Positions 1-10,064 of a DNA stretch of 64,000 bases are shown here, piece after piece. Below the pieces are notes generated by a model that saw nothing but the letters and a program-made list of their open reading frames with translations, searched no databases and was not told where the DNA came from. This DNA is from an uncultured delta proteobacterium (GTDB lineage: Bacteria > Myxococcota_A > Polyangia > Fen-1088), in contig CAVTRY010000015.1 in NCBI GenBank assembly GCA_963737265.1, positions 64,001-128,000 of the forward strand. Reading direction: 5' to 3'. The position numbers and the translations under genes were made by a program. Each line of letters begins with the position of its first letter. Within the stretch, counting starts at the first letter, position 1.

Positions 1-156
1 GGCTCCGGGGATCTCGTTGTTCATCTCAAGCTGGTGGTTCCCAAATCCCTGTCGGCCGAACAGGAACAGGCGCTGCGTGTCTTTGCCAGCGCGGGCGGCG
101 ACCAGATCGAGCCGCCCGGCGAGCGCAGCAGCTTCTGGCGCAAGAAGCGCAAGTAA
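1..156 (+). CDS. dnaJ: Molecular chaperone DnaJ, C-terminal end (partial, runs off window start)
   Basis: Frame 1 reads GSGDLVVHLKLVVPKSLSAEQEQALRVFASAGGDQIEPPGERSSFWRKKRK*, the typical DnaJ C-terminal GDL..V.VP..LS.EQ..L motif; not in the ORF track because it has no start. Confidence 0.8.
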   Translation, partial: GSGDLVVHLKLVVPKSLSAEQEQALRVFASAGGDQIEPPGERSSFWRKKRK

Positions 157-240
157 ATCGTCGCTATTTCTTCTTTGCGTTATTCGTTGGCGTAGCGCTC
201 GTGGCGGGGCTCGTCGGCTTTTTCCCGTCGGGCTTCGTGA
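84..240. repeat. 157-bp direct repeat, left copy (dnaJ 3' end plus copy of slt 3' end)
   Basis: Ungapped match to 10667-10823 with 7 mismatches by manual alignment. Confidence 0.95.
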
Positions 241-310
241 ATCAGCCCGCGCGATCCGCGCACGAGCTGGATATGGACTTTAGGTGCCGCATGGCCTTTA
301 ACGCCGCCCG

Positions 311-625
311 ATGGCAACCCCCTCGGCTCAAGCGACCCTGCTGTCGCGGGAAACGGTTTCGCGGGTGTCGGGCGAGAAGGTGCGGGCCATTCGCTGGGGC
401 TTTCCCGATTCGCGCGGAATGCTGTCGCCTCTCTCGGGCCAGCGCGTGCTGTTTGGTCGTGGTGACGATTGCCACGTGAACCTGCCCGGCAAGGAGATTT
501 CGCGCCACCACGCCGAGATCCGCCGGGCTGCTCGCCGTCAACACGCCGTGGCCGACGTCCACCCGTCGACCTGGACGTCCACCTGGACCATGGAAAATCG
601 TCGCAGCGGCCCGGCGCTTGGTTGA
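311..625 (+). pseudogene. Truncated FHA-domain protein (N-terminus of a probable FHA sigma-54 regulator)
   Basis: LFGRGDDCHVNLPGKEISRHHAEIRR is the FHA GR..C...L....SR.HA motif; the domain breaks off at ~530. Confidence 0.7.
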
Positions 626-760
626 CTGGCTCCCTGCTCCGGCTTGAGTAACCGATGAAACCTGCCGATTCTCGCGATCCGCGGCGCCAACCGGTTATTC
701 GCGCGCCGGTCGGCGCCGCCGTCAGGAAGGGCACGGGACCTGCAAAGGAGAACGGGCGAG

Positions 761-1646
761 ATGCGAAACTTAAAGATTAGCTTTTGGGTGGTCCTCCTCG
801 GAATCTCGGCGGCCGACTTCGCGCGGGCCGATGAATCGCTGTCCGCCCCCGGCCAGGTCACTCAGGATGGTGGCGCAACGCCGGTTGGCCCCGATGCGGG
901 CGTCGATCGACCGCGTGACCTCGCGCCCGGCGATACCGCCTCGGCGCCCGGCGATACCGCCTCGGCCCCCGCCGATGCCGGGCTCGCAGATCCGGGCGAC
1001 GTGGTTGTCCACCCGGACGCCGGACTGGACACGGAAATTCCGCCCGAGCAGCTGGCCAAGCCCATCGTCGCGGGAGGTCCCGCCGAGCGGGCGCAGGACG
1101 TGCCGGTCATAGCGGCGCGGGCGGCGACGGTTTCGTCGGCCGGCTTGCCCCTGCTTGGCGTGATGGTCGACATCGGCGTGCCGGACGGGCTCATGGCCTC
1201 GCTGGTGGCGCGCCCGTGGCGCTGGATGCGCGTCTCGGCGGGCGGCGGCACCAACAGCATCAGCAATGGCTGGCGCGCCGGCATAAGCCTGCTGCCCTTT
1301 GCCGCCGGTCCCTCGGCCAGCCTCGAATACGGCCGCTATCAGGACGGCGATGCCAACGCCTTGGCCAAGAAATTCGTTGGCGGCAATTTCAACGGCAGCC
1401 CGGCTCTCGACCGGGTCGGCTATGAGTTCATGAACGCGCACCTCGGCCTGGATTTCGGTTCGCGCAACGTCGTCTTCTTCCTTCACGGCGGTGTGACCAT
1501 GCTGCGTGGCCGAGATCCACAACCTCAATGCCGCGATTGCCGGGGCGGGCGGCACGGCCCCGACCGAGGTGGTGGTGCGCCAGGATCCGAATTTCAAGGC
1601 CGTGGGGCCGTCGTTCAAGTTGGGTTTGCTTTGTTACATCTGGTGA
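761..1646 (+). CDS. Secreted/outer-membrane beta-barrel-like protein (frameshift ~1510)
   Basis: Signal peptide, Pro/Ala linker with an APGDTAS x2 21-bp repeat, amphipathic strands; alternate frame continues IHNLNAAIAG...PSFKLGLLCYIW* with a terminal aromatic residue. Confidence 0.6.
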
Positions 1647-1655
1647 GGTCAGGCG

Positions 1656-2189
1656 ATGAAACTGCGACTGCTCTGTAATCTTGTGCTGCTGGCCGCGTCC
1701 TTTGGCGCGTGCACGCCGTCGTTCGACGCGGATTTGCCCGGGGTCGAGATCACTCAGCGCGGAGTGAAGGTGCCGGCCGCGCCCGCGTCGCCGTCCGGTG
1801 GCGAGGTCGCGGTGTCGGGGAGGTTCACGCTGTCGTCGTCCGATGCCGCCTGGACCAAGCACATGAATCGCTCGGTTCAGGTCCACAGGCTGATCATCGC
1901 CCCGGGCGGGGCTCTGCCCAGCCTCGACTTCATCGCGTCCGCTCACGTGACCGTCGCCCCCAGCTCGAGCCCGGGAAACGCAACCACGATCTTGGACTAC
2001 GAGCACACCGCCGATGCACCGGTTGCTTCAGTCATCCAGGTCGACATGCCCGCCCCCATCGACATCACTACCGCCTGGACTGCCGACGCGACGGTCGTCG
2101 AGCTCGACGTCGCCGGACAACTGCCCGTCGAGGACTGGACCATCGATGTGACGCTCGAGCTGTCGGGCAAGATTGCGTACAAATACTGA
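1656..2189 (+). CDS. Hypothetical lipoprotein
   Basis: Lipobox-like LAASFGAC; GAGG RBS; directly follows the upstream gene. Confidence 0.7.
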   Translation: MKLRLLCNLVLLAASFGACTPSFDADLPGVEITQRGVKVPAAPASPSGGEVAVSGRFTLSSSDAAWTKHMNRSVQVHRLIIAPGGALPSLDFIASAHVTVAPSSSPGNATTILDYEHTADAPVASVIQVDMPAPIDITTAWTADATVVELDVAGQLPVEDWTIDVTLELSGKIAYKY

Positions 2190-2412
2190 AGAACTGTCCA
2201 AAAATTGGACAGTTCTTCAGCAGCCGAGCCAAGGGCTCGGCCGCAGGTGGGGTGAAGTCCGCGAATTTACTTCGCGGACGAGGGGAGGGCAGCGGCCCTC
2301 CCTTCAAAAATCTTCAAGACGGGTCCATTTATGGACACGTCTTGACCCCTAACACGTTCGGCCCGACTACCGAACAGGGGGCGCGGCTGTCGGCCGGCGA
2401 CTGTCCAGCCGC
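2186..2412. other. Array of seven consecutive stem-loops (structured RNA, REP/MITE-like element or operator array)
   Basis: Stems: 2186-2201/2205-2220 (16 bp perfect); 2223-30/2234-41; 2257-65/2271-79; 2283-90/2295-2302; 2314-28/2331-45 (1 mismatch); 2346-61/2370-80 (bulged); 2383-89/2406-12. Confidence 0.75.
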
Positions 2413-2611
2413 ACCCTGGAAATGGCGGCCATGGTGGTGGGCCTGGCGGCGACGGCCTCGCCAATCCTCGGTCGGCGGTAAGCGACCGGCACAGGCGCTC
2501 GAAGTCGGCGCCGCGGCACGCGGTCCGCGTTTGCCCATCGTGCGTAGCGGTCGGGATTTGTACAAGCGGGCTTCAACAACGGCCCTGTCCTGGGTTAGTC
2601 TGCTTTGGCCC

Positions 2612-4153
2612 ATGTCTGATGACGAATCTCTAACGCTGTCCCGGTCAAAGTCATCGAGAATTTCTGCCCGGTTTGTTGGTGCGACCACAAAACGCACGCG
2701 CAACGGAGACCTTCGGTGGGTTGCTCAGGCTACCATCAACGGGGCTCACCTCGTATTTGGGACCTGGGCCACCGCCAAAGAGGCGGCCATCGCCTTTGAT
2801 CGGGCAGTGCTCTACTACCGAGGGCCAGAAGCGCCACGCAATTTCCCTGAACGGCGGGACTTGCTTCCCGCCGACGCCAAGCAACTACTGGAAGAAGCCC
2901 ATCGCGCCGCCAAGAAGAGACTGGAGATCCCCTACGACGGCGTCAGTAGAGCCAACGGGGAGCACTGGATCGCCAAACTGCGCGTGGATGGCCTGCCGAG
3001 GTTGCTGGGAACCTGGCCAACCGCGGAAGCCGCGGCCATCGCGTACGATCGAGCAGTCCTGACCTACTACGGCAAGACGGCTCGGCGGAACTTTCCCGAG
3101 CGGCGGCTCAAGCCCGCAGATATCGAGCAATTGCAGGCCGAGGCTCAGCAAGCGAGGGGAGTGCGCGCCAAGAGTGGGTATCTCGGTGTCTCCCCTACGC
3201 GGAGTGGGCCGAACAAGTCCTGGAAGGCTACCATTCGAATCGAGGGTAAGTACGAGCGGCTGGGTATTTGGGCTAGCGCCAAGGAAGCGGCCGAGGCCTA
3301 CGATCGAGCCGTGCTCGCGGTTCGCGGGAAAAAGGCTGCTCGGAACTTTCCCGAACGACGATTGCACCCAACCGACGCCGCGCAACTGCGGGCAGAAGCT
3401 CATCATTTGAACAGGTCTCGTATGAGCAGCCAACACTATGGTGTTGGCCTTACGATGGGTGGCTGGAAGGCGATGATCGGAAGTCACTTCCTCGGAAATT
3501 GGCAGAGCGAGGAAAAGGCAGCCGAGGCATGTGACCGAGCCATGCTGTTCTTAGGTGTCCCCACGGAGAAGCTGAACTTCCCGTCTCGTCCTCCTGTACC
3601 GGCCAGCCCATCGGATCTACGGCTGGAGGCTCGTCAAGACAGAAAGAGATGCAGCAATGCCTACACCAGTCACTATCTTGGCGTGTCCTACAACCCCGCC
3701 AATGGGGAGCGTTCATGGCAGGCGACGCTGTGGCGCGGTGGCAAGCAGCGGAACCTGGGCCATTGGAAAAGTGAAGCTGACGCGGCAAGGGTGCATGACC
3801 GAGCCGTCCGCTACTTCATGCCGGGAAAACTGCCTCTCAACTTTCCCGACGAAGACAATCCGCCAGCGAACGCGGCCACTCTTCGCGCCGAGGCCTTTCG
3901 CGAAGGCAGGGCTAGATACAGCTCCTCTTTTCGCGGGGTGCACTATGAAGAAGCAAATCGATGCTGGATAGCAACGATTACCCATCGCTATTCGCACATC
4001 TGGCTTGGGCGATTTGCCAACGAACACAAAGCTGCCCTTGCCTTCGATAAGAAGGCCATCGAGCTACGCGGTCCGGAAGCGCGTCTCAACTTCGACCCGC
4101 GGACAGGCAAGCGGATCTGGGGACAGCGAGTGCGCGAACTGAGGAGCCGCTGA
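2612..4153 (+). CDS. Six-AP2-domain DNA-binding protein (513 aa)
   Basis: Six units of [FY]xGV...W.A.I....LG.[WF].....AA.A[YF]DRA....G..A..NFP; NF codons at 2840, 3089, 3344, 3575, 3839, 4088. ATG 2612 is the likely start within ORF 1709..4153. Confidence 0.88.
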   Translation: MSDDESLTLSRSKSSRISARFVGATTKRTRNGDLRWVAQATINGAHLVFGTWATAKEAAIAFDRAVLYYRGPEAPRNFPERRDLLPADAKQLLEEAHRAAKKRLEIPYDGVSRANGEHWIAKLRVDGLPRLLGTWPTAEAAAIAYDRAVLTYYGKTARRNFPERRLKPADIEQLQAEAQQARGVRAKSGYLGVSPTRSGPNKSWKATIRIEGKYERLGIWASAKEAAEAYDRAVLAVRGKKAARNFPERRLHPTDAAQLRAEAHHLNRSRMSSQHYGVGLTMGGWKAMIGSHFLGNWQSEEKAAEACDRAMLFLGVPTEKLNFPSRPPVPASPSDLRLEARQDRKRCSNAYTSHYLGVSYNPANGERSWQATLWRGGKQRNLGHWKSEADAARVHDRAVRYFMPGKLPLNFPDEDNPPANAATLRAEAFREGRARYSSSFRGVHYEEANRCWIATITHRYSHIWLGRFANEHKAALAFDKKAIELRGPEARLNFDPRTGKRIWGQRVRELRSR

Positions 4154-4254
4154 GCATTCGGCTCATAGTTGCCGGCGGCTAAGCCCGCCGCTCCGGCGAA
4201 GAAAAAGAAGTGAACGCTCGCGGCCCAACAACTTCATCTGAAAGGACTTTACGC

Positions 4255-4632
4255 ATGAGTAATGGAACCGCCGCCTTTGTCATCGTTGCTGCAATCGGGT
4301 TCGCCTGCTCCCACCTGCAACAGAAGCCACCGACCGTCGCGCCACAGCAGGCGCCCGCTCCGAGACGGACTGCCGCGAGCACGTCCCCGACCACTGTGGC
4401 GAACGGCAGCTCTGCATCCGATCTCGATGCGTCGACATCAGGCCCGGTCTCCCCGAGTGCAGTACGGCGCGCATCCATTTCGATTTCAACCAAGCTGACA
4501 TCCACCCGGACGAGACAGCGAAACTCCAGCGCATGGGACGTTGTTTGAAGGCCGACCATGCGCTTCACGTTACTATTGAGGGCAACGCACACGAGCGGGA
4601 ACCGAGGACTGGAACCTCGCACTCGGCGACGT
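4255..4632 (+). pseudogene. Degraded OmpA/Pal-family peptidoglycan-binding lipoprotein
   Basis: Lipobox IGFAC; shifted frames read IHFDFNQADIHPDETAKLQRMGRCLKADHALHVTIEGNAHER/TEDWNLALGD (OmpA_C motif); multiple frameshifts and truncation. Confidence 0.75.
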
Positions 4633-5175
4633 GCCGAAGAGCCCGAGGATAATGACCAACCCGGTTGCGGCGCGGATAAGGCGCTCAGCAAGCAGCACCG
4701 GCCGAAGATCGGACTGAAAGCGGTCGTTGATAATTGCCTGGGTGTCAACACTGGCCGCTACCCCGAAAAGCAGAAGGGTCGAGGAAACGGTTAGCCAGGA
4801 ATGGGTTCTGCCAGAGTGACTTTCTGATTGCATGCTCGAAACGCGGCAGCAAGCGACGTGCCACGGTCAGAACATGGGTCGGAGTCGAGATCGCCAGCCT
4901 TCACACCGAGGCAATTCGCCACGCGTGGCAAGTTGTCACGTGGCGACCGGCGAGATTCCGAGTTTTCGCGGTCGTTTCCATGCGGAGAGGGTGGCATACG
5001 CCTTGCTGACTGGGGTGCTCATGCGTTCGAGATTCGATTGCCCGCCAGTCATCGGATTGGGGGCGTCTCGAACGCCGGAATCAACTGCCCTCGAACTTCC
5101 CCATCCATCGCGGCCTCTTTTTCGCGTCGGCATCTTTCCACGTCGGGCACATCATCCGGGTAGGATGGCCGGGCC

Positions 5176-6687
5176 ATGAAACTCGCGGCCAAGCTAACCG
5201 CCTTCATCCTGGCCGCCATGCTTTTGGTTTTCGCCGTGCGCGGCTATCAGGCCGCGCGCCGGCAGATGGTGAACGCCGAGACCAGGGCGCGTGAGAACTC
5301 GCTCTTGCTTGGACGCGCGTTGCGCCCGGCCCTGGCCGAAATTTGGAGCCAGGAGGGGCCGGCGTTGGCCTTGGAAATGCTCTCCTATGCGGCGGATCGC
5401 GTGCGCCGAACCCAACAGCTCGATTTGCGTTTCGTGCGCACCTCCTCTGGCAAGGGGACCGGGGTACAGCCGCTTGTGCGCCCAGAGCAGCTGGCAGGTC
5501 TCGATGTGGACGACGAGCGGGTTTTTGTCGAGAAAGTGGCCGGGAATGAGACCCTGCTCACCTACTTGCCCGTGGTCGTTGGCAATCAGCAAGTGGGCGC
5601 GCTGGAGGTTTCTGGCCCGCTCACCGAGCGTGACAACGAGTTTCGGGCCGAGATCATGCAAATCTTGGGGCGCACTGCACTGGCGGCACTGGCTGCCTTC
5701 ATTGCTGTTGGGGTTGCTGGTATCTTCTTCGTGGGGCGCCCCATGCGATTGCTCGTGGCCAAGGCGAGACGGATAGGTGCCGGGGATCTTTCCCAGCCTC
5801 TTGAGCTCAAGCAAAGAGACGAGGTCGGCGAGCTTGCGGCCGAAATCAATCAGATGTGCGAGCGGCTGGCGGCGGCCCAGGCGCGGGTCGAAGAGGAAAC
5901 CAACCAACGAATAGCGACGGCCGAGCAGCTTCGCCACGCCGATCGGTTGACCACGGTTGGTAAGTTGGCTTCGGGTGTGGCGCACGAGCTGGGCACGCCT
6001 CTCAACGTGGTTTCCGGCCGCGCCAAGATGATCACGCGCGGCCAGGTCACGGGCGCCGAGCTGGTCGAAAGCGCACAAGCCATTGTCGACCAAGCCGACC
6101 GCATGACCAACATCATCAAGCAACTGCTGGGATTCGCCCGACGACGCCAACCCCAACGTCGGAAAGAGAGCCTTCGGGGCGTGGTGGATCGTACCCTGGC
6201 GCTGCTCCACCCGATGGCGCAAAAGTCGGATCTATTGCTTTCAAAACCAATCACAGCCGAACCAGAACCCTTCGCAGAGATCGACGTTGGTCTCATCGAG
6301 CAAGCCCTGACCAACCTGGTCGTCAACGCCATTCAGGCCATGCCCAAAGGCGGCGTCCTCACCATTCACTCCTGCGAAGAGGTTGTCTCGCCGCCCGTGG
6401 GCGTGCCCGCCACCGCAGGCGGGTATGCTTGCCTACATGTCGAGGACACTGGCGGCGGCATGACCAGCGAGCAGCTTCGCCATGCCTTCGAGCCCTTCTT
6501 CACTACCAAAGAAGTGGGCAGCGGGACTGGCCTCGGACTTTCGGTCGCCCACGGTATCGTTCGCGATCACGGCGGCTGGATCGCCGCGACCAGCGCGGTA
6601 GACAAGGGAAGCCGCTTCTCGATGTATCTGCCCTCGATTCACAAACCGGAAACACCTAATGAACAAGTCGATTCTGATCGTGGATGA
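5176..6687 (+). CDS. Membrane sensor histidine kinase (HAMP-HisKA-HATPase)
   Basis: Two TM segments, HAMP, H-box VAHELGTPLN, N-box NLVVNAIQA, FEPFFTTK, GTGLGL. Confidence 0.95.
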   Translation: MKLAAKLTAFILAAMLLVFAVRGYQAARRQMVNAETRARENSLLLGRALRPALAEIWSQEGPALALEMLSYAADRVRRTQQLDLRFVRTSSGKGTGVQPLVRPEQLAGLDVDDERVFVEKVAGNETLLTYLPVVVGNQQVGALEVSGPLTERDNEFRAEIMQILGRTALAALAAFIAVGVAGIFFVGRPMRLLVAKARRIGAGDLSQPLELKQRDEVGELAAEINQMCERLAAAQARVEEETNQRIATAEQLRHADRLTTVGKLASGVAHELGTPLNVVSGRAKMITRGQVTGAELVESAQAIVDQADRMTNIIKQLLGFARRRQPQRRKESLRGVVDRTLALLHPMAQKSDLLLSKPITAEPEPFAEIDVGLIEQALTNLVVNAIQAMPKGGVLTIHSCEEVVSPPVGVPATAGGYACLHVEDTGGGMTSEQLRHAFEPFFTTKEVGSGTGLGLSVAHGIVRDHGGWIAATSAVDKGSRFSMYLPSIHKPETPNEQVDSDRG

Positions 6688-8021
6688 CGACGCGGCCCTG
6701 TGCCGGCTGGTCGTCGATGGCCTCGGTCGCGAGGGATTCGAGGTGCGCAGCGCGACCTCGCCCGAGGAGGCTCTGGCCGCCATGGCGAGCGGCGATTTCG
6801 ATGCGGCGTTGGTCGACATCAACATGCCCCAGATGAACGGATTGGACTTGAGTCGCCGCCTCTTGGATCAGCGGCCGGACTTGCCCATCGTCGTCATCAC
6901 GGCGTTCGGCTGCCTGGAGACGGCTATCGCCGCCATCCGCGCCGGGGCATACGATTTCGTCACCAAGCCATTCGAGATCGAACAGCTCGTGGTGGCAGCC
7001 GACCGCGCCTGCCAGACCCACAAGCTTCGCGAGGAGGTCCGCCGGTTGCGCGAGGTGGTGATGTCTCCGCCGCCGTTCGCCGACATCCTCGGCGAATCGG
7101 CCGAAATTCGCCGGCTGTGCCACGTCATCGACGCCGTCGCGCAAACGGATTCCACGGTGTTGGTGACGGGCGAAAGCGGCACGGGCAAAGAGCTCGTGGC
7201 CCGTGCCCTGCACGAACGCGGTCCGCGCAAGGCGGGGCCATTCGTGGCCATGAACTGCGCGGCCATGACCGACACGTTGCTCGAGAGCGAGCTCTTCGGC
7301 CATGCCCGTGGCGCTTTTACGGATGCCAAGGACACCCGCGTCGGTCTCTTCGTGAAGGCGGGCACGGGAACACTTTTCCTCGACGAGATCGGCGACATGC
7401 CCGCGGGCATGCAAGCCAAAATGCTGCGCGCCCTCGAAACGCGCATGGTGCGCCCGGTGGGCAGCGACAGCGAAGTTCCCTTTCGGGCCCGGATTGTCGC
7501 CGCCACCAACCGGGATCTGGAGAGCGAAGTCGAAGACGGGCATTTCAGGCAAGACCTATACTTTCGGGTCAACGTCATCCGCATCCCGGTCCCGTCTTTG
7601 CGTTCGCGCGGGGGTGACATCTTGATCCTGGCGCAAAACTTCGCGCTCAAGTTGGCCAAGCGTCTAGACAAGAAGGTAACCGGCATTTCTGTGCCTGCGG
7701 CGGAGCGGTTGCTCGCGTACCCATGGCCAGGCAACGTGCGCGAGCTTCAGAACGCCATCGAGCGCTCCGTGGCAATGACACGTTTTGAGGTGATCGTCGT
7801 CGAGGATTTGCCCGAGACCGTGCGCAGCTACCGACGATCGCCCCTGCTACCATCGGGCGAGGACACCTCCGACTTCTTGCCCATGCACGAGGTCGAAAAG
7901 CGCTACATCCTGCGGGTTCTCGATGCCAGTGGCTGGAAACAAGACTTCCGCCGCGCAGATCCTAGGTTTCGATCGCCGCACCATGTATCGCAAGCTAGAG
8001 CGTTTCGACAAAAGCAAGTAG
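6659..8021 (+). CDS. Sigma-54-dependent response regulator, NtrC family (frameshift ~7930)
   Basis: REC domain, [24 protein letters not shown]; Fis HTH GNKTSAAQILGFDRRTMYRKL in the shifted frame, stop at 8019-8021. Confidence 0.92.
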
Positions 8022-8429
8022 TCGCACTTTGGCAGTCCCTCTCGCAGGCCTCGCGCGATAATCTCGCCAGGGGCCGAATGTTCGCATGCTCCAGTGATGG
8101 CCTCGAACATGGCTCCTGCGATCAGTACAAGCTGCCAGCAGCCGTTTCCGTCCGACGCGCCACGGTGCCCGGCGCGCTGCATTGCGCTGGGTCCATCTCG
8201 TCGCGTGCGTCGGTCGGGCCTGCGTGGGCGATGAACAAGTGGTCGGCTTGGCGTAGACGGCGAGGTGTGCGAAGTCGCCCAGGCCGGCGATCTTGTTGCG
8301 AACAATCGGCGCCAACGGGTGAGGCGTGTCGCGCGTAGATCGCTCGCAGACCGGCCCATGCCTTTTGTTTCCGGTTTGGTCATGCTGCTTTCGCCTCCTG
8401 GCTAGTCGCCTGCGTGACAAAGCAACTGA

Positions 8430-9010
8430 ACGTCCAGCACAACGGCTTTTTGTTACGCATGTTCCAGCGCGCGCCAAATGTCATATGTGTGCCGCAAGCT
8501 CGTGGTCGAGCGGAAACTCTTGCGTCGCAAGCAGCGGCGTCAAAGCACCCGGAAGTGTGACTCTATCTGATTGACCCACGAGGCGTGTAGTGGAGGTGGA
8601 AGCGCCCGCCGTGGCGCTAGTTGAATTGCTACCAGCGCTCACCTTTTTTGGATGTTGAGACTGTCGAGCGTGCTGTGGGTATCACCTAATGGGTTATCGC
8701 GCGGCCACCGCGACCATGTGCCGTTCTATGTACCCCCTTCCGCGTAGGGCTGCATGCGGCAACGACCTCGCCGGTCTCCACGTTGACCGTCGACAGCAGC
8801 GACTGCGTGCCGTGACGGATGGATGTACTCGAACTTCTGGAGCGCCAGGCGCCCGGGGTAAGAAGGCCGGTCGGGGTGGGTGCCTGCGCTCAAGACCGCC
8901 TGCATGCCCGGCTTCTCGTCGAAGCTCACCACGATGCTGCCTGGTGGCGGCTGATCGAGGCAGCCGGGCCGCGCCCAAGCATGCGTTCTGCGCCAGCTCG
9001 GAAGGCGACG
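8430..9010 (-). mobile_element. IS630-family transposase remnant
   Basis: Fragments IVVSFDEKPGMQA, ERRHP, FEYIH, GRFHLHYTP and WVNQIE across several frames; heavily decayed; boundaries approximate. Confidence 0.8.
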
Positions 9011-9144
9011 AAGGTGCGGTAGCGGATGCAAAAGTGCATAGCGGTCGAATCGTCAGTGGCGTGGGACGATTGGGGCTGGGCGGCAATAGGTGGTTGCGGG
9101 ACAACATAGTGCTCGCCGAACCTCTCGCAGAGATCGGCGAGACA

Positions 9145-9696
9145 TCAGAAGGATCCGTGCAGAACCGTGCCCATGAAACCCGGGCTGGTGGCGGGAAGAA
9201 GCGTCAGCGACGACGCGGCTTTGTGATTTTGCCTATATGCCAAGTAGTAGAGGAACGCGCCGCCTGCCAGGCAGGCCGTGCCGACGCCATAGCCGACCCA
9301 GGCGAAGGTTACGTAGGTCGGTCGCGTAGACGCTTCACCCTGGTGAAATGTTGGTGAAGTCTGCAGATCGCTGGCCAAGCTGTTGGCTTTCAAATTCAGG
9401 AGTATGCCCGTGGTGATGCTGGCCACGCCCACGGCCGTGGCCACGATGGTCCCGGTGCGCATCCCGGAGCGAGACGTAGCAGGCGCTGCGGACATGGTTT
9501 GGCCAGCCTGTGTCGGTTGCGCAGGCGCCGCGGTCGTTGGCTGCGCGGAGGGCATCGCCGGGTTCGAAGTTTCCGCGGTTGCCTTCTGGGTTCCGAGCAC
9601 GAATAGCAGGGCAAGTGCAAGAAATCGCACGATGTAGCGAGGCACAGGTAGCGCCAGTGCGCGCGCTGGTCGGTTCGGCCAGCAGAATGAATGCAT
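9145..9696 (-). CDS. Hypothetical membrane protein (C-terminal module of myxobacterial TPR/PEGA-type proteins)
   Basis: Signal-like N-terminus and two hydrophobic segments; clearly similar to the C-terminal half of 28626..29438 (AVGVA.I.TG....KAN.L; YGVG.A....GA.LY; G.F end). Confidence 0.6.
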   Translation of the reverse strand: MHSFCWPNRPARALALPVPRYIVRFLALALLFVLGTQKATAETSNPAMPSAQPTTAAPAQPTQAGQTMSAAPATSRSGMRTGTIVATAVGVASITTGILLNLKANSLASDLQTSPTFHQGEASTRPTYVTFAWVGYGVGTACLAGGAFLYYLAYRQNHKAASSLTLLPATSPGFMGTVLHGSF

Positions 9697-10064
9697 GACA
9701 GCAGTTTCTCCTCAAAAACAGTCGGAAGGCAAGAAGTACCTTTCGTCTTTCGTACACCCAACCCTGCTGTGTGTGCAGACCTTTCGCACAAACACGTACG
9801 CAAGAGCGGCATGCCCAATATCATTGAGGTTTTGGCTGGCCAGGTGAGCTATGAGGGGTGATGCTTTGGCAATGCTTGACACCTCCCCGACCGCCTCACT
9901 GACGCGCTGCGCGTACGACCACCGTCTCTGGAATCAAGTCGTTGAAGATGCGCAGGACTTGGCCGAGTAATTGCCCATCGAAGGCCAACGGAAATCTCAG
10001 CGAGAAGGGCAGCGTAACTAGGGCCTGCCCGCCCTGCCCCTGCCCCACGCGGCTTCGCCGCGCC

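Follow-up and report, generated by a model that had tools for sequence, protein, structure and literature searches.

P0001, a protein encoded in the window (the whole 64,000-nucleotide stretch of DNA analysed here), consists of six AP2 units and their helical linkers and has no other domain. The AP2 domain is best known from plant and apicomplexan transcription factors, and the bacterial examples seen are mostly modules that direct homing nucleases and integrases to their targets. The architecture, fold, single-domain content, family, copy-number variation, distribution and pattern of variation of P0001 are established by the analysis, and we infer DNA binding, a groove-per-unit geometry, the length of the bound site and a role as a repressor or blocker. 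Judging by analogy with DNA-bound AP2 factors, the protein probably acts as an accessory, sequence-specific and non-catalytic binder of a long composite DNA site.

The gene for the six-AP2 array lies at 2612..4153 (+, stop codon included) inside an open frame running from 1709-4153 (+), and its ATG at 2612 gives a protein of 513 aa, as supported by the translation and by a Pfam AP2 score above the cut-off. According to the unit HMM, the units span residues 18-511 of 513, which leaves no space for a catalytic domain. In P0001, Pfam finds AP2 and no second family, no nuclease and no integrase; NCBIfam returns no family match for the protein, and PADLOC leaves P0001 itself unmatched. The sequence-only reading had described six AP2 domains that are joined by a conserved linker and form an array of their own, fused to neither nuclease nor integrase, and the Pfam results, the unit coverage and the HNH_3 and remnant searches reported below all agree with it.

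The units were delimited with the unit HMM and each was scored with a profile built from the remaining five (leave-one-out), with 200 shuffles per unit as a control that reached at most 11.1 bits. Unit 1 (aa 18-96; 2663..2899, +) combines an AP2 core with the linker LLPADAKQLLEEA and scores 74.9 bits (Pfam AP2 singly, E 0.016); in the AlphaFold2 model, its strands cover residues 24-52 and its helices 55-70 and 89-103. Unit 2 (aa 105-178; 2924..3145, +), with the linker LKPADIEQLQAEA, scores 79.0 bits (singly, E 0.18), and unit 3 (aa 187-263; 3170..3400, +), with the linker LHPTDAAQLRAEA, scores 95.1 bits (singly, E 0.0078). Unit 4 (aa 272-340; 3425..3631, +) has the shortest AP2 core, with a short beta2-beta3 turn, followed by the linker PVPASPSDLRLEA; it scores 40.0 bits against 4.3 or less for its shuffles, has no Pfam match singly, and is modelled with strands at 278-297 and a helix at 300-313. 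Unit 5 (aa 352-428; 3665..3895, +), with the linker NPPANAATLRAEA, scores 56.9 bits and likewise has no Pfam match singly. Lastly, unit 6 (aa 437-511; 3920..4144, +) is the terminal AP2 core, in which a C-terminal cap, NFDPRTGKRIWGQRVRELR, replaces the linker (Pfam AP2 singly, E 6.8e-6).

P0001 belongs to the AP2 superfamily, since PF00847 scores 37.3 bits on the whole protein against a cut-off of 33.3 (E 3.4e-9) and the model places a three-stranded antiparallel sheet on one helix in the units. The sequence-only reading had counted on six PF00847 hits; only two stretches pass on their own, and the single-unit E values given above mean that Pfam alone does not yield six. The six units are recovered by the leave-one-out comparison instead (40-95 bits each, E 3.7e-12 or better), and the observation of six tandem AP2 domains is confirmed. 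The NF[PD] anchors of P0001 stand at residues 77, 160, 245, 322, 410 and 493, and their spacings of 83, 85, 77, 88 and 83 aa match the periodicity of 77-88 aa that had been noticed, just as all five linker strings quoted at that time are present in the translation. Unit 6 ends in NFD and not in the NFP signature said to close each unit. Mean pairwise identity among the six units is 0.42 in the helix, 0.47 in the NFP block and 0.36 in the linker, against 0.22 in sheet columns 8-31, in keeping with the description of conserved helices and of strands that differ between units, a sheet-versus-helix contrast that is partly circular, as the sheet columns were picked after their variability had been seen.

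In the AlphaFold2 model (mean pLDDT 79.8), all six units have a beta-beta-beta-alpha fold and units 1-5 are each followed by a helix; the pTM of 0.33 means that the model does not predict how the six units are placed relative to one another. Compared with PDB sequences, the six-unit profile matches WRI1 (4.6e-23) and ERF1 (2.4e-12), and Foldseek with the P0001 model returns WRI1 at E 2.1e-7 and 1gcc at a TM of 0.82 and an rmsd of 1.4 A. In VIA-align, model residues 99-252, which hold units 2 and 3 and their linker, superpose on WRI1 with a Z of 12.7 (147 residues, rmsd 5.8 A); TEM1 follows at Z 10.3, and unit 6 aligns to 1gcc at Z 9.3 (rmsd 1.5 A, 60 of 63 residues, 37% identity). In the comparison with plant double-AP2 factors, the phmmer alignment is of low confidence across the linker, and the structural echo of an integrase arm-binding domain is weak (3ju0 at Z 3.4). 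According to the structure report, the two sheets of WRI1 (PDB 7wq5) insert into neighbouring major grooves, and its linker makes DNA contacts as well. As the module of two units plus linker superposes on DNA-bound WRI1, one module per major groove is a reasonable model.

In the mechanism proposed here, a conserved scaffold, made up of the AP2 helix, the NFP block and the helical linker, would hold the six AP2 domains, and P0001 would bind double-stranded DNA through the sheet, for which its basic character (pI 10.29), with the positive charge concentrated in the sheet part, speaks indirectly. Specifically, by analogy with WRI1, each three-stranded sheet would sit in one major groove and consecutive units would track consecutive grooves, so that adjacent units in adjacent grooves would set the whole protein on a long composite site, with a candidate length of very roughly 50-60 bp. 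Since the sheet residues change from unit to unit, each unit is proposed to contribute a separate sub-site. The earlier suggestion of unit-specific candidate recognition sheets on a conserved scaffold holds up in this respect, with an identity among units of 0.12 at the seven ERF1-equivalent base-contact columns and with an agreeing pattern among 15 orthologues, whose least conserved part is the sheet region. P0001 is related to arrays with a homing-type nuclease at the N-terminus, and its most likely role would be that of a nuclease-free descendant (or ancestor) of such targeting modules that binds specific DNA and blocks or regulates it; it could, for instance, repress certain genes or foreign DNA, in the manner of the phage CapR+AP2 “CasPR” silencers.

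P0001 is part of a compact-array family that is sizeable, uncharacterised and fast-evolving. The family is defined by at least 80% coverage by at least four AP2 units, a linker of the P-A-x(3,4)-L-R-x-E-A type and a U6-type terminal unit, and P0001 has six units, five linkers of the family type and a U6-type terminal unit. Compact nuclease-free arrays (compact meaning a unit coverage of at least 80%) make up 119 of the 202 proteins in hand, and their 4 to 9 units display the copy-number variation anticipated by the sequence-only reading; fused double arrays, e.g. P0068 and P0069, also occur. Among 97 distant compact arrays, 77 terminate in a U6-type unit and 43 in a U5-U6 pair, and a linker-like motif is present at 251 of the 455 junctions of compact arrays. 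The unit-profile search collected 636 clusters at E<=1e-30, green-algal proteins among them. Some relatives have 61-78% identity to P0001. The family is distributed sporadically: with the source genome counted in, a match is present in 3 of 41 relatives and in 4 of the 401 genomes that represent the phylum. The scan of genome contigs gave a single relative, in a Myxococcales MAG (41%), and the scan of metagenome contigs with generic AP2-helix patterns kept 80 loci, among which only L013 (71%) and L014 (40%) are close. The plasmid collection gave no match, the phage collection yielded only the HNH endonuclease of phage RB16, with 19% of the query covered, and the search for longer homologous proteins gave three matches, none of them a fused form of the compact-array family. 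The source DNA occurs in three sequencing runs, all of them soil metagenomes from one study, with no RNA run listed.

The source genome contains three copies, each in a different neighbourhood, one of which is decayed (cut by TAA stops and devoid of a working unit 6), and similarity between copies ends at the gene limits, even where two copies share 89% DNA identity. Genes for toxin-antitoxin, restriction or polymorphic-toxin systems are often found close to the copies, the neighbours including AbiEii, ParE, zeta toxins, a cut type I methylase, and CHAT, Tox-PAAR-like and RHS proteins, but in large soil genomes a gene commonly has toxin or defence genes beside it, which counts against reading them as a signal. 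The conserved neighbours that the sequence-only reading had thought worth seeking did not emerge across copies and relatives. A two-component system and a sigma-54 activator adjoin the window copy, in a genome that is bacterial, and pseudogene remnants and a frameshifted regulator are also found beside it. No flanking direct or inverted repeats marking a mobile element surround the gene, no sigma-70-like promoter appears in 2000-5300, and no Rfam family is matched in window positions 1-10000. The upstream DNA of the window copy is not conserved with that of relatives, so no shared operator is visible, and its first ~20 codons and 5' leader differ from those of the main group. The gene looks accessory and in a mobile context rather than a core regulator, an assignment that follows from its sporadic presence, multiple copies, shifting neighbourhoods and fast evolution.

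The same features could suit a disarmed remnant of a selfish element, namely the targeting part of a homing-type protein that has lost its nuclease and persists as a decaying or neutral passenger without host function, an explanation that we consider unlikely. Relatives in which a nuclease stands ahead of the array do exist: 7 of the 56 non-compact relatives scanned (P0174, P0200, P0185, P0198, P0144, P0063 and P0201) have an N-terminal nuclease, HNH_3 in six and GIY-YIG in one, before 3-7 AP2 units, and in P0200 and P0185 the linker is of the same kind as in P0001. The sequence-only reading would have been undone by homologues that routinely carry a nuclease, and this is not the rule, given the 119 nuclease-free proteins, but it is the case for those seven. 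The nuclease-fused forms are Lys-rich and thus come from other, lower-GC sources, which argues against the remnant, as does the lack of a nuclease relic beside the gene: tblastn of the relatives' nuclease N-termini over window positions 1-6000 gave nothing significant (best E 0.039 over 36 aa), and the HNH_3 profile had no match over the whole source genome, while control profiles matched. The homology blocks limited to the lone gene in unrelated contexts, the stop-interrupted copy and the pseudogene material next to the window copy are in line with decay; on the other side stand the compact, intact state of the 119 nuclease-free arrays and the terminal U5-U6 architecture kept in distant arrays. 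Whole-gene dN/dS is 0.34-0.51 between intact copies and reaches 0.59 at most once comparisons involving the decayed C18 copy are counted, values that are high for a bacterial gene and speak for the remnant, but they stay below 1, and the scaffold is strongly constrained (in six pairs of intact copies, 0.14-0.42 in the helix and 0.45-0.74 in the sheet region). The likely DNA-contact sheets evolve fastest, and the helices and linkers are conserved; a sheet region that is least conserved and has a dN/dS below 1 between intact copies fits relaxed constraint as well as changing specificity.

The composition of the sheets also bears on a second alternative, in which P0001 would coat the chromosome with low specificity, as a nucleoid-associated protein or xenogeneic silencer making many weak AP2-DNA contacts. 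The base-contact residues of ERF1, said to go back to Allen et al. 1998, are reportedly R150, R152, W154, E160, R162, R170 and W172. In the units of P0001, most of the positions of these canonical base-contact residues, Arg and Trp above all, have S, T, G or A instead, so that recognition would need another mode or be weak. Their absence favours a coating protein, and so do the strongly basic character of P0001 (pI 10.29, net charge +34, the sheet parts of the six units summing to +15 and their helices to 0) and the poor conservation of the sheet residues even among orthologues. However, nucleoid proteins are usually conserved core genes, at odds with the sporadic distribution described above; moreover, the conserved U5-U6 tail suggests ordered, non-equivalent modules, and the solved AP2-DNA complexes that are matched (WRI1, ERF1 and ERF96) are all sequence-specific, which together make a coating function improbable.

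It is more improbable still that the AP2 fold is reused here for something other than double-stranded DNA, as an RNA-binding or protein-scaffold array. AP2-like proteins of the Toxoplasma mitoribosome match at Z 5.0-5.9 and dsRNA-binding domains weakly, at a Z of about 3, and the mitoribosome paper describes the mitoribosomal AP2-like domains as scaffolds whose extensions make the rRNA contacts; nevertheless, DNA-bound AP2 factors match far better (Z 9.3-12.7), and the mitoribosomal proteins depend on long extensions that P0001, filled by its units, does not have. Least credible of all is an exported mimic of eukaryotic AP2 factors, delivered to algal, plant or protist cells with a logic like that of TAL effectors: green-algal multi-AP2 proteins are the top-scoring non-family matches of the unit profile, the Atlas clusters nearest to P0001 are from Chlorophyta and Myxococcota, the P0001 units share 39-49% identity with units from algae, polymorphic-toxin genes of the Tox-PAAR-like or RHS kind adjoin two relatives, and sporadic, fast-evolving genes are typical of effectors, but no secretion signal, carrier domain or delivery-system fusion was found in P0001, the AP2 units of nuclease-fused arrays are just as similar (39-43%), and the toxin-gene adjacency concerns those two contexts only and is not conserved. 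As algal and nuclease-array units are equally similar, the identities allow no inference on origin.

An accessory, sequence-specific DNA binder thus remains the preferred reading. A more ambitious form of it, which we put forward tentatively and hold to be rather unlikely as a whole, is that P0001 would represent a natural modular DNA-reading scaffold, with one AP2 sheet per groove and the register held by the frame of helix and linker; as nuclease-free kin of the targeting modules of homing endonucleases, such arrays would guard or silence unit-addressable sites of ~40-60 bp, and involvement in genetic conflicts would drive a rapid diversification of their recognition sheets. If this were true, they would form a third natural “beads-on-a-string” system of DNA reading, besides zinc-finger arrays and TAL effectors, in which units can be added, lost or swapped, as in the range of 4-9 units and the fused double arrays. 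Were each unit to read a separate sub-site, this family would provide a new natural scaffold for recognising long DNA sites, together with an example of nuclease-targeting modules turned regulators or silencers. In addition, the WRI1-like two-unit module and the likeness to green-algal proteins bear on the old question of how the plant AP2 factors originated, in either direction of descent.

Among known systems, WRI1 has in common with P0001 the AP2 fold and two AP2 domains with a helical linker of about 25-30 residues. The differences are that P0001 has six units instead of two, has nothing beyond the array and is bacterial and not plant, that its base-contact residues differ, and that its linker is modelled as a single helix, whereas the WRI1 report gives a V of two helices. 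The plant AP2 subfamily itself, whose members are nuclear proteins of plants that combine exactly two repeats with activation regions, was rejected as an assignment, P0001 having six repeats only and a bacterial genome. AtERF1 (PDB 1gcc) and P0001 share the framework G-V...W.A...LG.F/W...AA.AYD...NFP, but AtERF1 is a single domain with the Arg and Trp residues for the GCC box, which are mostly absent from the six units of P0001. Some homing-type HNH-AP2 and GIY-YIG-AP2 proteins resemble P0001 in their arrays of 3-7 AP2 units; identity with them was discarded, there being no nuclease in P0001 or nearby and no HNH_3 anywhere in the genome. A tyrosine integrase with an AP2-like arm-binding domain was discarded as well, as Pfam detects no integrase and the units fill residues 18-511.

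Stand-alone bacterial AP2 proteins that are neither integrases nor nucleases, with architectures like those of plants and alveolates, have been described, and a function as specific transcription factors is predicted for them (Iyer & Aravind 2012, as related in a secondary passage of PMC4117751). On the strength of that passage, the compact array is a variant within a known kind; the idea of an undescribed family fails as far as stand-alone bacterial AP2 proteins are concerned and may hold for the compact-array family, which is uncharacterised, and the first interpretation, a modular DNA-reading array of a possibly undescribed family, is partly supported. The literature search pairing AP2 domains with myxobacteria or Myxococc- found no paper. 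CasPR proteins, as presented in the preprint (bioRxiv 10.64898/2026.02.23.707548), are CapR + AP2 anti-CRISPR repressors of Bacillota prophages that bind a specific 30-bp site and silence transcription in genetic conflict. Like P0001, whose DNA binding is predicted, they are nuclease-free and built from domains otherwise found in homing endonucleases; unlike it, they are described there with one AP2 domain and a Cys-rich CapR, sometimes with an HTH, and in another host phylum. P0001 is not itself a CasPR, as its three cysteines in total and the lack of a long unassigned stretch leave no place for the Cys-rich CapR zinc domain. Finally, the green-algal proteins resemble P0001 in their many AP2 units (13 in Cymbomonas P0065, 12 each in Coccomyxa P0062 and Edaphochlamys P0075), but in multi-AP2 green-algal and ApiAP2 proteins the domains are scattered over 1,800-3,600 residues with long low-complexity spacers, cover 24-50% of the protein and are accompanied by chromatin domains (Tudor, RING, PHD), whereas at least 80% of P0001 consists of units, joined by a short conserved linker.

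The architecture, fold, and charge of P0001, the six-unit protein encoded at window 2612..4153 (+), together with a two-unit module like that of the plant double-AP2 factor WRI1, point to a predicted non-catalytic binder of double-stranded DNA, which would lie along several consecutive major grooves and present a recognition surface specific to each unit. The plus-strand open frame runs from window position 1709 to 4153, and the part of it for which relatives exist begins with the ATG at 2612, giving a product of 513 residues in which NF[PD] anchors recur at residues 77, 160, 245, 322, 410, and 493 (spacings 83, 85, 77, 88, and 83) and in whose translation all five linker strings that the sequence-only reading quotes can be found. 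At full length, P0001 matches Pfam AP2 with 37.3 bits (curated cut-off 33.3; E 3.4e-9) and no further family in Pfam or NCBIfam. That reading had also counted six AP2 domains, which Pfam alone does not demonstrate because scans of the single units, U1 to U6, are weak or empty (E 0.016, 0.18, 0.0078, none, none, and 6.8e-6); the count is upheld by a leave-one-out test, in which every unit scores 40-95 bits against the profile built from the other five, with a maximum of 11.1 bits in the shuffle control (200 shuffles per unit). Moreover, a search of PDB sequences with the six-unit profile (alignment A1) retrieves WRI1 (4.6e-23) and the single-AP2 plant factor ERF1 (2.4e-12). The protein is strongly basic (pI 10.29, net charge +34), with the positive charge located in the sheet part; lower odds are given to a non-specific coating protein.

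The AlphaFold2 model of P0001, made from alignment A2 of 19 relatives, contains six beta-beta-beta-alpha units, of which units 1 to 5 each lead into a linker helix; the individual domains are predicted well (mean pLDDT 79.8), whereas how they are placed relative to one another is not (pTM only 0.33). Foldseek matches the model to DNA-bound WRI1 (E 2.1e-7, TM 0.65 on the target), to ERF1 (TM 0.82, rmsd 1.4 A), and to TEM1, and a second structural aligner returns WRI1 (Z 12.7, 147 residues aligned, rmsd 5.8 A), TEM1 (Z 10.3), and the ERF1 structure 1gcc (Z 9.3, rmsd 1.5 A). Both AP2 domains of WRI1 align to model residues 99-252, namely units 2 and 3 and their linker. Less probable than the DNA binder proposed here are an RNA-binding protein and an exported protein that mimics AP2 factors of eukaryotes. 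In passages of the WRI1 paper, the two sheets occupy adjacent major grooves of the 14-bp AW-box, and the linker forms a V of two helices that is also in contact with the DNA.

Mean pairwise identity among the six units is 0.12 at the seven columns equivalent to the ERF1 base contacts, 0.22 over sheet columns 8-31, 0.36 in the linker, 0.42 in the AP2 helix, and 0.47 in the NFP block. The contact columns, mapped onto ERF1 via the match of the six-unit profile to PDB sequences, follow the list of base-reading residues reportedly given by Allen et al. 1998, and in P0001 they are mostly occupied by small or polar residues instead of the canonical Arg/Trp readers. Conservation across 15 six-unit orthologues is likewise lowest in the sheet columns. 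Nei-Gojobori estimates from five coding sequences give whole-gene dN/dS values of 0.34-0.59 over all ten pairs and 0.34-0.51 over the six pairs of intact copies, and the latter pairs yield 0.45-0.74 in the sheet region versus 0.14-0.42 in the helix, a contrast that is partly circular because the sheet columns were chosen after their variability was seen. Regional values below 1 are compatible with both relaxed constraint and shifting specificity; the further alternative that the gene is a neutral remnant is accorded lower odds.

A search for proteins of near length returned 61, query included, about 20 of them at 63-78% identity; where the database annotates the close relatives, Pfam lists AP2 alone, and the source names, where given, are 'hypothetical protein' or 'AP2 domain'. 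Among 1.84 billion cluster representatives, the unit profile matched 70,179 at E<=0.001, 9,055 at 1e-10, and 636 at 1e-30. Compact arrays, whose units cover at least 80% of the length, account for 119 of 202 retrieved proteins (117 without rounding) and contain four (54 proteins), five (33), six (27), seven (3), eight (1), or nine (1) units, some of the short ones possibly being fragments from short contigs. When units were typed with profiles of U1-U6, a U6-type unit came last in 77 of 97 distant compact arrays and U5-U6 formed the final pair in 43; a linker-like motif occupies 251 of 455 junctions of compact arrays, and the majority are Arg-rich (R/(R+K) above 0.7 in 80 of 117). In three metagenome proteins of eight to nine units (P0068, P0069, and P0024), the U6-type 'terminal' unit also occurs internally, and these look like two complete arrays joined head to tail. 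The longest matches are proteins of the green algae Cymbomonas, Coccomyxa, and Edaphochlamys, which differ in that their AP2 domains lie far apart and chromatin domains are present.

A nuclease scan covered 56 of the 58 non-compact proteins with extensions of at least 90 residues and found, N-terminal to three to seven AP2 units, HNH_3 in six and GIY-YIG in one, besides treble-clef zinc-finger repeats in two and eukaryotic chromatin domains in several. Given these counts and the linker of P0001 type in the HNH forms P0200 and P0185, nuclease-fused arrays are relatives, but a minority. HNH_3 had no match in the source genome, with control genomes positive in the same search, and no nuclease remnant was found beside the P0001 gene.

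The source genome (6.55 Mb, 25 contigs, completeness 99.5%, contamination 7.6%) carries three copies of the array gene: the six-unit window copy, a five-unit copy on contig C14 that lacks unit 1 (71% identical), and a copy on C18 (G000:C18:67095-68252, locus L012; 61% identical) that is cut by TAA stops, where four intact units (P0021) are followed by a stop and then by what is left of a decayed unit 6. Counting this genome, matches occur in 3 of 41 relatives; the others tested comprise 12 genomes of the same genus (one match), 12 from other genera of the family (one match), and 16 from other families of the class (none). In a sample of 401 genomes from the phylum, the unit profile matches 4, the source genome again counted. 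Among named records, only a Myxococcales MAG carries a relative, and the nearest bacterial cluster in the Atlas is mostly Myxococcota. Between copies, DNA similarity stops at the gene ends: those of genome G010 and locus L013 (89% DNA identity) have only the coding region and a leader of about 55 nt in common. This 5' leader is conserved at L013 6925-6980 and L010 9213-9268 within otherwise unrelated neighbourhoods, and the window copy lacks it, differing from the G010/L013 main group in the first ~20 codons and the upstream DNA. The neighbours are different at every locus, namely a histidine kinase and a sigma-54 activator (window), an AbiEii toxin (C14), a truncated type I methyltransferase and a zeta toxin (C18), a CHAT protease and a phosphoesterase (G010), a ParE toxin (Myxococcales MAG), a Tox-PAAR-like protein (L013), and an RHS/teneurin-type protein (L014).

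Around the window copy, a perfect hairpin (2186-2220; stem 16+16 nt, loop 3 nt) spans the stop codon of ORF 1656-2189 and looks like its terminator, without a T run after it. Positions 4175-4630 hold a decayed, frame-broken copy (81% nucleotide identity) of an OmpA/Pal-type lipoprotein gene that is intact on contig C23 (L122 3737-4309; Pfam OmpA 2.5e-17) and has a shorter 78% copy on C16. In the NtrC-type sigma-54 activator ORF (6659-8338), the Fis-type HTH tail GNKTSAAQILGFDRRTMYRKLERF is out of frame, with a break around 7925, and is encoded in a frame starting at 7851; the break reflects either a genuine frameshift or a mistake in the assembly. Lastly, contig C25 (L121 3039-5121) contains window pieces 4629-4951, 6146-6710, and 7902-8031 at 95-98% identity, of which 4751-4951, 6146-6710, and 7902-8031 abut directly, the intervening window stretches being absent, and 4629-4745 sits about 1.1 kb further on; they represent either a second copy that has degraded or, in this assembly with 7.6% contamination, a strain/contaminant mosaic.

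The sporadic, multi-copy, context-free, and fast-evolving nature of the P0001 gene and the existence of nuclease-fused relatives point to an accessory gene rather than a core regulator, with homing-type targeting modules as either its source or its descendants. According to a passage of PMC4117751, AP2 domains outside plants and Apicomplexa accompany homing endonucleases or integrases in most families, and Iyer & Aravind 2012 reported bacterial AP2 proteins that are not integrases and whose architectures are plant/alveolate-like, predicting them to be transcription factors. The array is real and deserves experiment, but it is less singular than first claimed, since stand-alone bacterial AP2 proteins were already reported. 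A full-text search, with Balaji 2005 and Iyer & Aravind 2012 outside its reach, found nothing that links AP2 domains to myxobacteria. That AP2 proteins without a nuclease can act as site-specific silencers in conflicts has a tested precedent in the CasPR phage family, described in passages of a preprint (bioRxiv 10.64898/2026.02.23.707548); its members, which combine one AP2 domain with CapR zinc domains, are not closely related to P0001.
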